Shown: positions 15,053 through 23,976 of the stretch, piece by piece
Position numbering within the stretch: position 1 is the stretch's first letter
How the letters are laid out: each line of letters starts with the position of its first letter
Assembly (NCBI GenBank): GCA_026014845.1
Contig: JAOZHM010000069.1
Coordinates: forward strand, 1 to 24,361
Length of the DNA stretch: 24,361 nt
Source: Candidatus Bathyarchaeota archaeon
Lineage (GTDB): Archaea > Thermoproteota > Bathyarchaeia > Bathyarchaeales > Bathycorpusculaceae
Direction: 5' to 3'
Notes under the pieces: generated by a model
Databases searched by the model: none
Seen by the model: the letters and a program-made list of their open reading frames with translations, nothing else
Told to the model about the DNA's origin: nothing
Position numbers and translations under genes: made by a program

Positions 15053-16144
15053 TCAGGTTATGAAATTTGTTAGATTCGCTTCTCTAGCCAGTTGAATAGC
15101 TATTTTCTTTTCGTCTCTTGTCAGTCTTCTGCGTATTTCTGGAATTTCATACGCTTTCCACTCTGGTCTGTACTGAAACATTACGTTTACTCTTGTGTCT
15201 GTGCCCAGATTTCTAGCCATCCAATTTATGATAGATTTTGCGCAGCATTCCAAATGGCTTGGCAAAACAAGTATGCGTATTATTAGTTCACCGTACTTTT
15301 TGGCTTCTAAATGGTTTCGTGTGCATGCTCCCCAATAGTTTGGGGCGTTTGAAATTTTTTCGGCACACCCATCTGGTCCATACTTGAAGTCTAATAGGTA
15401 AACGTCAACGAATCCTGCTAAGAGCCGTCCTGTTTCCGGACTATAGTAGCTGTTAGAGTTCCAAACAACTGGAATGTTTTTGTTGACGTGGTTGAATGTT
15501 TCAAGCCACTGTTCCAGCCACGGCGTCGGCTCCCCTCCTACAAGATTTGCGTTTCTGCACCCGTTCATGCGTAACTGTTCAACTTCTCTTGCTAGTTCTT
15601 CCGGCTTGTAAACTTCACCCTTCTCTACCCATTGGGATATCGTCCAGTTTTGGCAGTGGCGGCAACGCATTGTACAGCCTATTGTGAAAATAGTGCCGGA
15701 AGGAACTAGTTCAGGTTCTTCGCCCATGTGTTCAAAAATGCTTGAAACCGTTATTTCAGTTCCGCACCTACAGTAGCCCAATTCACCTTTAGATCTGTTA
15801 ATCTCACATCTTCGAGTGCAGAAATGACAATTCGTGAGAATTCTTGTTGCAATCTCAATTTTCAAATCTAAATAGGATTTTTCCGGATTTGGCATGTTCT
15901 GCAGACTTTCTTGACGAGTATCAATTTCTCTCTCAATTCTGTAAAATTTCTGTGTAAGTCTTCCGTGTTCTTGCCAAAGCTCTCCTATAGAATCGTATTC
16001 ATCGAATTGTGCTGGAAGCTTTTTGGCTATCCTAAACTTCGCTGGTTTTTCATCCTGCATGACGGAGAAGTATCTTGCTAGGCTTTTTCTTGCCATTTTA
16101 TCGTTCAGCACTCTCACTGCATCTCGGCGTAAGATTCTCCACAT
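15053..16144 (-). CDS. Radical SAM protein, PflX/COG1313-like (activase-like)
   Basis: CTMRCRHC (CxxxCxxC), N-terminal CHFCTRRC...GYC cluster, GEEPELVPSGTIF, VGGEPTP, DVYLLDFKYG. Confidence 0.88.
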   Translation of the reverse strand: MWRILRRDAVRVLNDKMARKSLARYFSVMQDEKPAKFRIAKKLPAQFDEYDSIGELWQEHGRLTQKFYRIEREIDTRQESLQNMPNPEKSYLDLKIEIATRILTNCHFCTRRCEINRSKGELGYCRCGTEITVSSIFEHMGEEPELVPSGTIFTIGCTMRCRHCQNWTISQWVEKGEVYKPEELAREVEQLRMNGCRNANLVGGEPTPWLEQWLETFNHVNKNIPVVWNSNSYYSPETGRLLAGFVDVYLLDFKYGPDGCAEKISNAPNYWGACTRNHLEAKKYGELIIRILVLPSHLECCAKSIINWMARNLGTDTRVNVMFQYRPEWKAYEIPEIRRRLTRDEKKIAIQLAREANLTNFIT

Positions 16145-16176
16145 ACCAGTTCAATCTAATCTGGGCTAAGGAATTA

Positions 16177-17232
16177 TTAAAACAAGGCGTATGGGTAAGC
16201 GTATCCGCTTGTATGCAATTTGCCTTTAATTGGGATTTCTTGTCCGCATGCTGGGCAACGCATGTCCTTTGTTAAATTCCATTTTGCGATTTCAAAGCTG
16301 AAACGTTTAATCAGTAATTCGTTGCAGTTTGGACAGTACGTGTTTTCATATGGGTGTTCAGGCACGTTCCCCATATAAACGTAGTTTAATCCCGCTTCCT
16401 TCACGGCGGCATACGCTTTTTCTAAAGTTTTGACTGGCGTGGACGGAATGGTTGTCAATTGGTAGTCTGGATGGAAACGCAACAAGTGAAAAGGCGTGTC
16501 TTTTCCAAGTGCATTCTTTGTCCAAGCTGCAAGCTCCTTTATCCTCTCAATGGAATTTCCTTTCTTAGGCACAACTAAATTTGTGATTTCTATGTGAATG
16601 TCGTTTTTTTTCATTTCCTTTAAAGACTCATAGATTGGCTCAACTGATGGAACCGCTGAAAAATTTTTGTAGAAGTCTGGCGCTCCTCCACCTTTAAAGT
16701 CTACCGTTGCCGCGTCCAAATAAGGTGCTATTGTTTTTACTGCTTCCGGAGTCATATAACCATTTGTTACAAAGGTGTTGAAGAATCCTAATTGGTGGGC
16801 AAGCTTGGCAGTGTCGTAGGCGTACTCGAAGAATATGGTTGGCTCTGTGTAAGTGTAGCTTATTCCTTGACAGCCGTTATCTTTTGTAGCTTTGACAACT
16901 TCTTCTGGTGGGAAATATCTACCCGCTATCTTCTTCTCTTGGCTTATCATCCAATTGTCACAGAATTTACAGCGGAAGTTGCAGCCAATAGTGGCAATAG
17001 ACATGACCAAAGCTCCCGGATTGAAGTGCGAAAGCGGCTTCTTCCCTATTGGGTCTGCGCAGGCGGATATCGCCTTTGCATAAACAAGCGAAAAAAGTGT
17101 TCCCCCTTCATTTTTCCTAACGAGACAGAAACCTAATGCGCCGTCTTTTATCAAGCATCTTCTAGCACACAGATTGCATCTAACCTTCCTGTCTTCCAAT
17201 TTTTCGTAAAGCATAGCTTCATGCAACGACAT
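16177..17232 (-). CDS. AmmeMemoRadiSam-system radical SAM enzyme
   Basis: CNLCARRC...GFC, DPIGKKPLSHFNPG, GCNFRCKFCDNW, SYTYTEPT, FHLLRFHPDY, C-terminal CPNC and CPAC. Confidence 0.9.
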   Translation of the reverse strand: MSLHEAMLYEKLEDRKVRCNLCARRCLIKDGALGFCLVRKNEGGTLFSLVYAKAISACADPIGKKPLSHFNPGALVMSIATIGCNFRCKFCDNWMISQEKKIAGRYFPPEEVVKATKDNGCQGISYTYTEPTIFFEYAYDTAKLAHQLGFFNTFVTNGYMTPEAVKTIAPYLDAATVDFKGGGAPDFYKNFSAVPSVEPIYESLKEMKKNDIHIEITNLVVPKKGNSIERIKELAAWTKNALGKDTPFHLLRFHPDYQLTTIPSTPVKTLEKAYAAVKEAGLNYVYMGNVPEHPYENTYCPNCNELLIKRFSFEIAKWNLTKDMRCPACGQEIPIKGKLHTSGYAYPYALF

Positions 17233-21671: not shown

Positions 21672-22640
21672 ATGGGCGACGAGAAAAAAGATGAGAATTC
21701 TGACCCTTTGTTAAGCTCTCAATTGGAACCTGAGAAGATTCAACGCTGTCCAGAATGTGGCAGTACAAGATTTATGCGTGATTATGAGTGTGCCGAAGTG
21801 GTTTGTATGGACTGCGGCTTCGTGATAACCGCAAAAATAGCTGACAGGGGGCCAGAATGGAGAGCTTTTACCAATGAGCAGAGGGCGAAACGGACAAGGG
21901 TTGGTGCTCCATTAACTTATACAATTCACGATAAAGGCTTATCCACAATGATTGATTGGCATGACCGCGATGTTTATGGAAAAAGTCTGTCGCCTGGGCA
22001 GAAGGCGCAAGTCTACCGTCTCAGGAAGTGGCAACGCCGCATAAGGGTTTCAGATGCCACGGAACGCAACCTCGCCTTTGCATTATCTGAAATCACAAAA
22101 ATCGCCAACAACCTAAACCTTCCTAAGAATATCCTCGAGACAGCTTCGGTTATCTATCGAAAAGCCGTTAAGGAACGGTTGATACGTGGGAGATCAATTC
22201 AGGGCGTAACCGCCGCAGCAGTCTATTTGGCTTGTAGGCAATGCAAGCTAGCCAGAACTTTGGAAGAAATTGCCCAAGCGTCGAATGTAAACAAAAAAGA
22301 GGTTGGTCGCAGCTATCGTTTCTTAGTCAAAGAACTTGACTATTTCGTTCCACCTGTAAAGCCAAGCCAGTACATAACAAAATTTTCAAATCAGTTAACA
22401 ATGCAGGGGAAAGTTGAGGAAATAGCGCATAAAATTTTGGCAACCGCAAAAGAGTTAAAGCTAACTTCGGGTCGTGGTCCCACAGGTATAGCGGCAGCTG
22501 CGAGCTATATAGCTTCTGTGTTGACTGGTGAGAGGAAAACGCAAAGAGAGATAGCTGAAATAGCACAGGTAACTGAAGTTACTATCCGAAACCGTTACAA
22601 GGAACTCGTAGAACGTCTGATGTTCCAGATAAGCCTCTAA
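21672..22640 (+). CDS. tfb: Transcription initiation factor IIB
   Basis: Zn ribbon CPECG...CMDCG, B-reader GPEWRAF, two cyclin repeats ([15 protein letters not shown]), C-terminal [16 protein letters not shown]. Confidence 0.98.
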
Positions 22641-22689: not shown

Positions 22690-22983
22690 TTAAAGAAGAC
22701 CTTCATCCTCGTAACTAGAGCGTTCTTCGACCGGCTTATTTTCTTCGTTCAATCGTGCTGATGTGACGTCTCCAAGTTGTTGAAGAAATTCTTGCGGAAT
22801 TCTATCCTTTAAGGCTTTAATGTCATCTCTCAATTTATTAACTTCGCCTTCTAGCTCCTTTGCTCTTTCGGTTAATTCTACAACATCTTCAAGCTTCTTC
22901 TTCTCCTCCAAAAGCGTGCTTTTCTCCTTTTCTAAAGTGTTTATTTTTTCCTCGAGTTTGGTTTTCATCTCGACAACTTGCAC
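22690..22983 (-). CDS. Small coiled-coil protein with an acidic tail
   Basis: AGGTGA SD before GTG 22983. Heptad pattern LEEKINTLEKEKSTLLEE...LEGEVNKLRDDIKALKD. Confidence 0.75.
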   Translation of the reverse strand: MQVVEMKTKLEEKINTLEKEKSTLLEEKKKLEDVVELTERAKELEGEVNKLRDDIKALKDRIPQEFLQQLGDVTSARLNEENKPVEERSSYEDEGLL

Positions 22984-23100
22984 AACTCTTCACCTGCACT
23001 AATTTCTGTTATACTCACAATTAATAATTTGCCCTTGAACCGTAGGCGTTGCAAAACACATTTTAGACTCTATGGTGATAATTATAGAAGGGGCTATAAT

Positions 23101-23532
23101 TTGGTTGAATGTCCAAAGTGTGGAACAGAAGTAATTACCCCAGTTAAGACATGGTCTATTCCTTCTCGAAGAGCGGCGAGAAGAGGCGAAGAAAGCAAAC
23201 TTGTTATGGGAATATTTGAATGTCCGAATTGCCAAGCTAGGTTTAGAGCAGCTGTGACAGCCGAAACCAAAGCTGAGGAAACAGTAAGTGTTAAAAATAT
23301 GGTTAAGAGAATTAAAGGTATAAAGGGGGAACTTATGCAGACTCTCAAGAATCTTCGTGGAAAAATAAAAACCTTGGAGACAGAACGTGCAAATTTGATG
23401 ATTGAAATTGAAAAATTGAAGAAAATGGCAGAATCAAAGGTTAGCGCGCTTGAAGGTGAAGTAAGCATGTTGCGGGAGGAAGTGACATCCTTAAGGGACC
23501 TTCTAGGTTACACAGAAGAAGCAGAAAAATAA
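23101..23532 (+). CDS. Cren7-like (Zn-ribbon variant) domain fused to a C-terminal coiled coil
   Basis: VECPKCG...PVKTWSIP...MGIFECPNCQARFRA resembles Cren7 (PEKVWALAP...KIGLFKDP...YFRH). About 65 aa of heptads follow. Start is taken as TTG 23101, because the ORF-track start 22978 overlaps the divergent gene. Confidence 0.7.
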   Translation: MVECPKCGTEVITPVKTWSIPSRRAARRGEESKLVMGIFECPNCQARFRAAVTAETKAEETVSVKNMVKRIKGIKGELMQTLKNLRGKIKTLETERANLMIEIEKLKKMAESKVSALEGEVSMLREEVTSLRDLLGYTEEAEK

Positions 23533-23571: not shown

Positions 23572-23976
23572 TTAGTCTTTCAAGTATTTCTTGTAATACT
23601 CTTGAGCCTTGGCTACCGCTTTTTTCGGGTTTTTCAAAATATGATACTTTGTCTCTGGTGAAATTTTCTCACTTTTGCTAAAGTATTCTATAACCTTTTT
23701 TGCATCTCCTTCGTAAATCGCTAAGCCTCCGGCTATTTCATACCACATCCTTGCCCTTACAAGATCCTTGGCTTTTTCACGTTTTTTTGCCTCTTTAGCA
23801 GCAGTACCTATTGAAACATCGATTTTTGTAGGGTCAAGAAACATCGTGTTAGACAACGCTTCATAGGTTTCTTGGTCTCGTCCGCAAATTTGTTCAAGTT
23901 CTGTCAGCGATTTTTCTGATTCAACTTGTATTTTTTGTTCTTTCTCTTTTCTTTTAAATCTGTCAAGTAAACCCAA
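23572..23976 (-). CDS. Hypothetical all-helical protein
   Basis: 134 aa, TTG start with a GAGGGG SD. No family recognised. Confidence 0.7.
   Translation of the reverse strand: MGLLDRFKRKEKEQKIQVESEKSLTELEQICGRDQETYEALSNTMFLDPTKIDVSIGTAAKEAKKREKAKDLVRARMWYEIAGGLAIYEGDAKKVIEYFSKSEKISPETKYHILKNPKKAVAKAQEYYKKYLKD

Follow-up and report, generated by a model that had tools for sequence, protein, structure and literature searches.

Positions 23101-23532 of a 24,361-nucleotide stretch of Candidatus Bathyarchaeota archaeon DNA (assembly GCA_026014845.1, contig JAOZHM010000069.1, positions 1 to 24,361, forward strand; hereafter, the window) encode a 143-amino-acid protein in which a zinc-type variant of the Cren7 domain appears to be fused to a leucine zipper. 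On balance, we lean toward the view that this protein, which could be denoted a "Cren7 zipper", is a bivalent architectural DNA-binding protein. The gene and its segments are as follows:

23101-23532, + strand: whole gene, predicted zinc-type Cren7 domain plus coiled coil, 143 amino acids (TTG start, TAA stop, homologues)
23101-23265, + strand: predicted zinc-ribbon-type Cren7 domain, residues 1-55 (hhalign, Foldseek, VIA-align)
23110-23121, + strand: first putative zinc knuckle, C4-P-K-C7, beta1/beta2 turn (both Cys in 81/81 orthologues)
23146-23199, + strand: residues 16-33, strand beta3 (K16, W18, I20) and the enlarged beta3-beta4 loop SRRAARRGEESK (hhalign, conservation)
23221-23232, + strand: second putative zinc knuckle, C41-P-N-C44, predicted beta4/beta5 turn (both Cys in 81/81 orthologues)
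23266-23289, + strand: acidic, variable linker, residues 56-63 (mean pairwise identity 50%, pLDDT below 60)
23290-23343, + strand: basic, glycine-containing helical neck, the first heptad segment, residues 64-81 (core positions 64, 67, 71, 74, 78)
23344-23505, + strand: predicted leucine zipper, residues 82-135 (d = Leu; a = Ile/Val/Arg96/Ala110; stutter at 110-114)
23506-23529, + strand: acidic tail G-Y-x-E-E, residues 136-143 (G136 in 35/41 and Y137 in 27/41 members of a diverse set)

Reading of the sequence and of the open reading frame places the TTG start codon at 23101 and the stop codon at 23530-23532, with 143 codons and a GGGG run 8-11 nucleotides 5' of the start; the starts of the orthologues fall on the same residue, either M or L. 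At E<=0.001, there are 637 homologues, with a length of about 143 amino acids, and at least 124 species-level loci were confirmed when a single genome was scanned for each species; nearly all of the 80 loci listed carry the label Candidatus Bathyarchaeota or Bathyarchaeia. The names of the homologues are uninformative, the automatic labels spanning the range from 'EnvC' to 'SbcCD'. Judged by the number of homologues, the invariant cysteines and the heptad-linked entropy of the alignment columns, a chance open reading frame at 23101-23532 is unlikely, and we consider the gene to be real. The antisense frame at 23094-23468 (minus strand) has no support and was disregarded.

The relationship of the N-terminal domain to Cren7 emerges from profile-profile comparison and from the predicted fold. 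When 301 genomes of the phylum were searched with the Pfam profile of Cren7 (PF11520), the canonical, cysteine-free Cren7 was recovered together with a group of four-cysteine proteins of 47-60 amino acids, of the type MAKCPKCGTEV..P.KTW.LAPKGRK.VTIGLFKCP.CGAYFRA, which score 40-58 bits and pass the cut-off of 25 bits. In hhalign comparisons, the N-terminal domain family matches these short zinc-type proteins at 99.65% (E 3.6e-25, 47% identity over 51 columns; the 47% identity holds for the 47-amino-acid proteins of this group), the zinc-type proteins match canonical Cren7 at 98.95% (E 1e-17), and the direct match between the N-terminal domain family and canonical Cren7 is at 92.5% (E 4.8e-7). 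The profile of the domain also retrieved zinc-type Cren7 proteins (P0169, P0195, P0215 and P0255) with E-values of 1e-12 to 1e-8 from a library of 1.8 billion proteins. An hmmsearch of the same profile against the PDB sequences produced no Cren7 match, the best hit being LysW (5k2m_E, E 0.006), which aligns through the CPxCG knuckles only; sequence-to-profile search is too weak for the link to Cren7, for which profile-profile and fold searches succeeded.

The fold was addressed with an AF2 model of residues 1-60, for which the input alignment contained no canonical Cren7 sequences (pLDDT 76, with low values in the beta3-beta4 loop). When this model was compared with 350,542 PDB chains using Foldseek, the top 11 hits were all Cren7 (probability 0.95-1.0, TM 0.53-0.61), and VIA-align against nine Cren7 entries yielded Z scores of 5.0-5.2 and an rmsd of 2.5-2.6 A over 51 of ~57 residues. 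The claim of an earlier note on this DNA that the N-terminal domain is Cren7-like is thus borne out by both approaches. These comparisons and the model lend good support to the prediction that residues 1-55 are a Cren7 domain in which the ancestral four-cysteine zinc site is retained. With regard to membership in the Cren7 domain family, we find profile homology and a five-stranded, SH3-like, type-2 zinc-ribbon beta fold, and a score below the Pfam gathering threshold; given this last point, the domain is best filed as a divergent paralogue within the Cren7/zinc-ribbon lineage rather than as a Pfam-defined Cren7.

All the motifs quoted in the earlier note are present at 23101-23532, namely, CPKC at residues 4-7, KTWSIP at 16-21, the loop SRRAARRGEESK at 22-33, LVMGIFECPNC at 34-44 and RFRA at 47-50. 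The hhalign alignment maps the Cren7 positions K24/W26/L28/K31/G39/L40/F41/F50/R51 to K16/W18/I20/R23/G37/I38/F39/F48/R49, in agreement with the matches that the note had named (the W, the intercalating hydrophobic residue, G.F and FR), except that Ile20 takes the place of Leu. Among these positions, K24, W26, K31 and R51 are contacts with the DNA minor groove in Cren7-DNA structures. Their counterparts are nearly invariant, K16, W18 and R49 each being conserved in 80/81 orthologues and Arg or Lys occupying position 23 in 77/81, with F48 present in 80-81 of 81 and position 20 hydrophobic in 81/81. Conservation of both the contact residues and the intercalating hydrophobic residue predicts DNA binding. 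The residue aligned with Ile20 is Leu28 of Cren7, the side chain of which intercalates from the minor groove and kinks the DNA by ~50 degrees (PMC5042384).

The four cysteines C4, C7, C41 and C44 are invariant, and the two CxxC knuckles occupy the turns, beta1/beta2 and beta4/beta5, at which the cysteines of zinc-type Cren7 are located according to the main text of Kaur, Iyer, Subramanian and Aravind (2018; PMC5906684), so that zinc binding is predicted. The beta3-beta4 loop contains a 6-residue insertion relative to canonical Cren7 in the hhalign alignment and is basic in its first part and acidic thereafter. The description of the domain as a zinc-type Cren7 with a longer, basic loop therefore holds as well.

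The protein shares the Cren7 fold over residues 1-57 and conserves the contact-aligned positions (Sso6901; PF11520; 3LWH, 3KXT, 6A2I, 2JTM), but it departs from canonical Cren7, a stand-alone, monomeric, strongly basic protein of ~60 amino acids without cysteines (PMC3592393), in having four putative zinc-ligand cysteines, six additional loop residues, a head with a net charge of only +3 and an 88-residue C-terminal extension. With its 143 amino acids, its coiled coil and this low charge, it is unlikely to be an orthologue of the abundant stand-alone chromatin protein. Several of its features are anticipated in the main text of Kaur et al., where Cren7 is derived from a zinc ribbon, zinc-bearing forms are reported in Crenarchaeota and Bathyarchaeota, and fusions of Cren7 to a CdvA-like coiled coil, to FtsZ and to nucleases are described, along with a crenarchaeal 'Cren7Znr' family that has an extended, non-helical C-terminal motif (PMC5906684). 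The placement of the cysteines, the occurrence in Bathyarchaeota and the joining of a Cren7 domain to other modules, including a coiled coil, are shared with the proteins presented there. The combination of an N-terminal Cren7 domain with a C-terminal zipper in a protein of ~143 amino acids is not mentioned in the main text of that paper, and a literature search on Cren7 and Bathyarchaeia together found no paper. The earlier note had gone further and spoken of an uncharacterized type of nucleoid protein; given that zinc-type Cren7 and Cren7 fusions were published in 2018 and that there is a precedent in Sso10a (PMC4941522), the protein is a variant of a described kind rather than a new kind.

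The C-terminal part of the protein is a coiled coil, modeled by AF2, in the full-length protein, as a single helix spanning residues 58-135 (mean pLDDT 81.7, with 93-97 over residues 71-120). A hydrophobic core with a spacing of 3-4 residues runs from residue 64 to residue 135 and is interrupted by two 4-residue stutters, at 78-82 and 110-114. In the zipper proper, the a positions are 82, 89, 96, 103, 110, 114, 121, 128 and 135, and the d positions are 85, 92, 99, 106, 117, 124 and 131; every d is Leu, and the a positions hold Ile, Val or Ala, with the addition of the invariant Arg96. This register is confirmed by the column entropy, which rises from 0.11 at a/d through 0.34 at e/g to 0.71 at b/c/f. 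Among the orthologues, identity reaches 85% in the coiled coil (residues 64-136), compared with 61% in the Cren7 domain and 43% in the loop of that domain; conservation of the tail is moderate (55%). The heptads announced in the earlier note are therefore present, although the core is longer than the roughly 65 residues given there, and both the dependence of entropy on heptad position and the predicted helix uphold its view of a genuine coiled coil, joined to the domain and expected to oligomerize. In database searches, the full-length protein produced sub-threshold matches only, in Pfam and NCBIfam alike, to zinc ribbons and generic coiled coils. The family assignments bZIP_1, ASRP and Sul12a (E 0.11), all below threshold, were rejected, and the faint matches of some homologues to PF27636 (CCPG1_N) were dismissed as coiled-coil noise.

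Five attractive g-e' pairs, K88-E93, E102-K107, K113-E118, E120-R125 and E127-R132, can be formed by two parallel copies of the zipper, and these are retained in 80-81 of the 81 orthologues and in 35-42 of the 42 members of the diverse set; the best antiparallel register brings together three repulsive and two attractive pairs. Val or Ile at a, Leu at d and a buried Arg at a are, by textbook coiled-coil rules, the classical signature of a two-stranded parallel structure. Heptad composition and charge thus favor a parallel, in-register, two-stranded zipper at residues 82-135, an arrangement that would bring both heads to one end. The neck that precedes the zipper is basic and contains conserved glycines, and its g-e' pair R70-K75 is repulsive in 77/81 orthologues, so that the segment 64-81 may splay apart. 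A homodimer model of two copies of residues 56-143 scored 0.02, the mark being 0.42, and was not used as evidence either way.

In the arrangement that we favor, the protein would dimerize through the parallel zipper, with the two zinc-Cren7 heads side by side at one end of a rod of ~8 nm, and flexible linkers of about 10 residues (56-63) would connect the heads to the basic helical neck (64-81) before the zipper. The dimer might act on a single duplex, kinking it at two neighboring minor-groove sites, or serve as a local clamp for two duplexes. Since the charge of the head is low compared with the +13 of a stand-alone zinc-Cren7 encoded in the same genome, binding would rely on avidity. This stand-alone protein of 58 amino acids (G000:C117:797-973; L001:797-973, + strand) has four cysteines and the same enlarged loop, and similar genes for 56-amino-acid proteins are present in most of the related genomes. 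It is probably the ordinary Cren7-type chromatin protein of the organism, fitting the stand-alone, basic role better than the 143-amino-acid fusion does. In the source genome, which is 81% complete, there are also genes for three Alba proteins and a single histone-fold protein, and no canonical Cren7 was detected above the cut-off.

Several observations weigh against the bivalent DNA-binding interpretation. The 25 best of the 78 families with E<=1 for the 143-amino-acid protein do not include PF11520, close homologues score 14.8-18.1 bits on this profile, below the cut-off of 25 bits, and matches within the same class likewise stay under it, which is why stronger homology tests were needed. 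The loop of the head holds a conserved acidic GEE patch and, given this patch and the weakly basic character of the head, strong non-specific DNA binding is not assured; furthermore, zinc ribbons bind RNA and proteins, too. Conserved hydrophobic residues are present outside the a and d positions, at e, f, g and c (M79, M100, I101, V109, M123 and L134), and could point to a higher-order bundle or to a partner, and the heptad and charge rules on which the parallel dimer is predicted, and which are its sole basis, are imperfect predictors. Finally, the zinc ribbons of NrdR match the N-terminal domain model with Z scores of 4.4-4.7, within 1 Z unit of Cren7. The near-tie is to be expected because Cren7 descends from a zinc ribbon (PMC5906684), and the Cren7 structures remain the best matches, so that the model speaks for Cren7 rather than for the unrelated zinc ribbon that the earlier note had named as its refutation.

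The principal alternative arrangement is that of a bridger akin to H-NS or Sso10a, in which an antiparallel coil, or a polymer built head-to-head and tail-to-tail, would hold opposed heads and connect distant DNA segments. Such an arrangement, which was the one preferred in the earlier note, is consistent with the presence of a DNA-binding domain and an oligomerization domain in one protein, the division of the helix into three segments by the two stutters, the hydrophobic residues outside a/d and the unusual conservation of the coiled coil. Like H-NS and Lsr2, the fusion has a helical oligomerization domain to which a small DNA-binding domain is flexibly linked, and, as with H-NST/Hha, there are proteins that lack the DNA-binding domain, here those that consist of the coiled coil only. 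However, there is no homology with H-NS or Lsr2, and the order is reversed, with the DNA-binding domain at the N-terminus. H-NS polymerizes via two separate dimerization sites, whereas the fusion has one continuous zipper, and neither a second oligomerization site nor a sign of polymerization is seen in its sequence; in the diverse set, the b/c/f faces are as variable as the N-terminal domain, with no hint of a second interface. The charge pairs and the composition of the a and d positions argue for the parallel orientation, as detailed above, and we accordingly find the H-NS-like bridging reading unsupported and regard a bridger of this kind as unlikely. A precedent in archaea is Sso10a/Sul10a (1R7J, 4WH0), a chromatin protein that consists of a DNA-binding domain on a dimerizing, antiparallel coiled coil and can bridge DNA, as observed for Sso10a1 in vitro (PMC4941522). 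It contains a winged helix and its heads lie at opposite ends of the coil, whereas the fusion has a Cren7 domain and a sequence that favors the parallel orientation; there is no sequence relationship between the two.

Full-length fusions are concentrated in four families (f1, f4, f5 and f6) within one order of Bathyarchaeia, with isolated occurrences beyond that order in two genomes of the class (G385 and G323) and one outside it (G111). Two contigs labeled 'Baldrarchaeota archaeon' (L112, JAEOSG010000324.1) and 'Acidiferrales bacterium' (L152, DASPPK010000019.1) carry the gene at 70-73% identity, with a transcription factor B (TFB) gene upstream, and are probably mis-binned. The zinc-Cren7 domain itself is found in 293 clusters at 50% identity, in many architectures: stand-alone, C-terminal after long coiled coils, together with a GIY-YIG domain and together with long acidic repeats. 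The long proteins that contain this domain include P0189, P0204 and P0260 (496-517 amino acids) and P0194, P0244, P0246 and P0249 (358-427 amino acids). In one of the long architectures, an N-terminal zinc-Cren7 domain is accompanied by a coiled coil and by acidic repeats, rich in Pro/Glu/Val, that extend over hundreds of residues; the other consists of an N-terminal coiled coil, a long low-complexity spacer and a C-terminal zinc-Cren7 domain. In a tree of the domain (58 columns, mostly unresolved), an extended-loop group with support of 99/93 unites the 143-amino-acid protein with the bathyarchaeal stand-alone forms. The main group of fusions has support of 88/93, and four other fusion proteins fall elsewhere, so that the tree does not establish that the fusion arose only once.

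The neighborhood of the gene in the window includes the following features:

21672-22640, + strand: TFB (Pfam TFIIB 2e-48, Zn_Ribbon_TF)
22690-22983, - strand: divergent gene for a 97-amino-acid acidic paralogue of the coiled coil only (BLASTP)
22984-23100, no strand: 117-bp divergent intergenic region, A/T-rich, with TATA-like stretches (sequence reading)
23572-23976, - strand: convergent gene for a 134-amino-acid basic protein (68/76 related loci)

TFB is located directly upstream of the fusion gene, on the same strand, in 74/75 close loci and in 17/19 more distant loci of the same order. The conserved block on the plus strand comprises Gar1, TFB, the fusion gene and DUF116, with the gene for the 134-amino-acid protein between the latter two in the opposite orientation; this protein has no significant match in Pfam or NCBIfam. 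Genes for L7Ae, Gar1, S28e and L40e, all related to RNA or the ribosome, are found in the neighborhood, as are succinyl-CoA ligase genes. The 117-bp intergenic region presumably holds the promoters of both genes that flank it. Two adjacent radical-SAM genes at 15053-17232 of the window (minus strand) are unconnected to the fusion; in related contigs, a radical-SAM/SPASM gene lies at the edge of the block.

A small divergent gene separates TFB from the fusion gene in 36/75 close loci, including the one in the window. By BLASTP, its 97-amino-acid product aligns with residues 85-133 of the fusion at an E-value of 2e-8, with 41% identity over 51 residues and an indel of two residues; its net charge is -8, compared with +5 for the coiled coil of the fusion. 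The indel puts the two halves out of register with each other, which disfavors a full-length heterodimer of the two proteins. Other coiled-coil-only paralogues (65-95 amino acids), which carry the same charges at g and e and contain no indels, are encoded elsewhere in the source genome and in related genomes. A second copy of the fusion (G000:C94:33-419; L055), 56% identical over residues 18-143, contains three in-frame stops (two TGA, one TAA) that destroy the Cren7 part, leaving open a 94-amino-acid coiled-coil frame, and represents either a decaying paralogue or a route to the coiled-coil-only genes. There are hints that the zipper is a module common to DNA-associated proteins. A gene for a protein with a ParB helix-turn-helix domain (24.9 bits, cut-off 22.6) is present at G000:C20:38-899 (L056, minus strand) and also at G013:C66 (L063); the L056 protein has a segment that resembles the beginning of the zipper (IKRLRDKIGTLENERTSLL) and a C-terminal CxxC..C zinc motif, and its gene is directly followed by one for a 64-amino-acid coiled-coil-only paralogue.

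We hypothesize that coiled-coil-only paralogues with the same charge pattern form one-headed heterodimers with the fusion and thereby tune its valency. A more elaborate version of the bivalent model is that one order of Bathyarchaeia possesses a valency-tuned chromatin system, in which two weak heads would clamp or bridge DNA, the acidic neighbor and the paralogues of 65-95 amino acids would give rise to one-headed or headless species, and the whole might be coupled to TFB. Valency tuning would resemble the antagonism of Id and bHLH or that of H-NST and H-NS. We consider a system of this extent to be a rather doubtful proposition.

A different possibility is that the protein is a DNA anchor for a division or segregation machine, the head tethering the chromosome and the coiled coil, together with the G-Y-x-E-E tail, recruiting a partner. 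Such a role is proposed in the main text of Kaur et al. for fusions of a CdvA-like coiled coil or FtsZ with Cren7, the fusion of Cren7 to cell-division modules being reported there in Crenarchaeota and Bathyarchaeota (PMC5906684). It would accommodate the higher conservation of the coiled coil relative to the DNA-binding head, the location of the zinc-Cren7 domain at the C-terminus of long coiled-coil proteins and the related coiled-coil segment in a ParB-type protein that adjoins a coiled-coil-only paralogue in the same genome. Against such an anchor, the conserved neighborhood (Gar1, TFB, DUF116, L40e and succinyl-CoA ligase) contains no division or segregation gene, no partner is identified, and the tail is only moderately conserved, so that we judge this role to be improbable.

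The conserved position next to TFB brings up the possibility of a sequence-specific, dimeric transcription regulator, that is, a zipper-dimerized zinc-ribbon reader tied to TFB. A head of low charge is more in keeping with specific than with bulk binding, the variable loop might serve to read sequence, and there are weak matches of bZIP_1 to the zipper (E 3e-5 to 1e-4; 19-24 bits, below the Pfam cut-off of 27.6). Like bZIP proteins of the GCN4 type, the fusion has Leu in the d positions, residues that are beta-branched or polar in the a positions, conserved salt bridges between g and e' and, N-terminal to the zipper, a helical segment of basic character. Only the zipper part aligns, however, and the likely DNA reader of the fusion would be a separate zinc-ribbon beta-domain that is predicted to engage the minor rather than the major groove, so that the relationship is one of analogy and not of membership. 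The residues retained in the head are the non-specific minor-groove contacts and the intercalating wedge of Cren7; the gene order within a single order may reflect shared ancestry only, and the full-length homologues outside the order (G385 and G323) are not adjacent to TFB. We regard a regulator of this type as quite unlikely. That the zinc ribbon binds RNA or protein instead of DNA, on a structural or adaptor coiled coil, is very improbable because the closest relatives in sequence and fold are Cren7 proteins and the DNA-contact residues of Cren7 are conserved, even though zinc ribbons are versatile, ribbons of NrdR, RNase P Rpp21 and RNA polymerase subunits match the model (Z 3-4.7) and genes for L7Ae, Gar1, S28e and L40e lie nearby.

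In Crenarchaeota, the textbook example of a monomeric DNA bender is Cren7, and a zipper-dimerized, zinc-binding Cren7, if our preferred interpretation of a bivalent DNA-binding protein is correct, would illustrate how a simple bender turns into a bivalent clamp or bridger. Bathyarchaeia are a very abundant, largely uncultured lineage of sediments, with genomes that combine histone, Alba and Cren7-type proteins, and the fusion would offer an experimentally tractable view of their chromatin. Given that the family is widespread, strongly conserved and unnamed, many database records would gain from the label 'Zn-ribbon Cren7 domain plus leucine zipper'. The paralogues that consist of the coiled coil only suggest, in addition, a regulatory layer.

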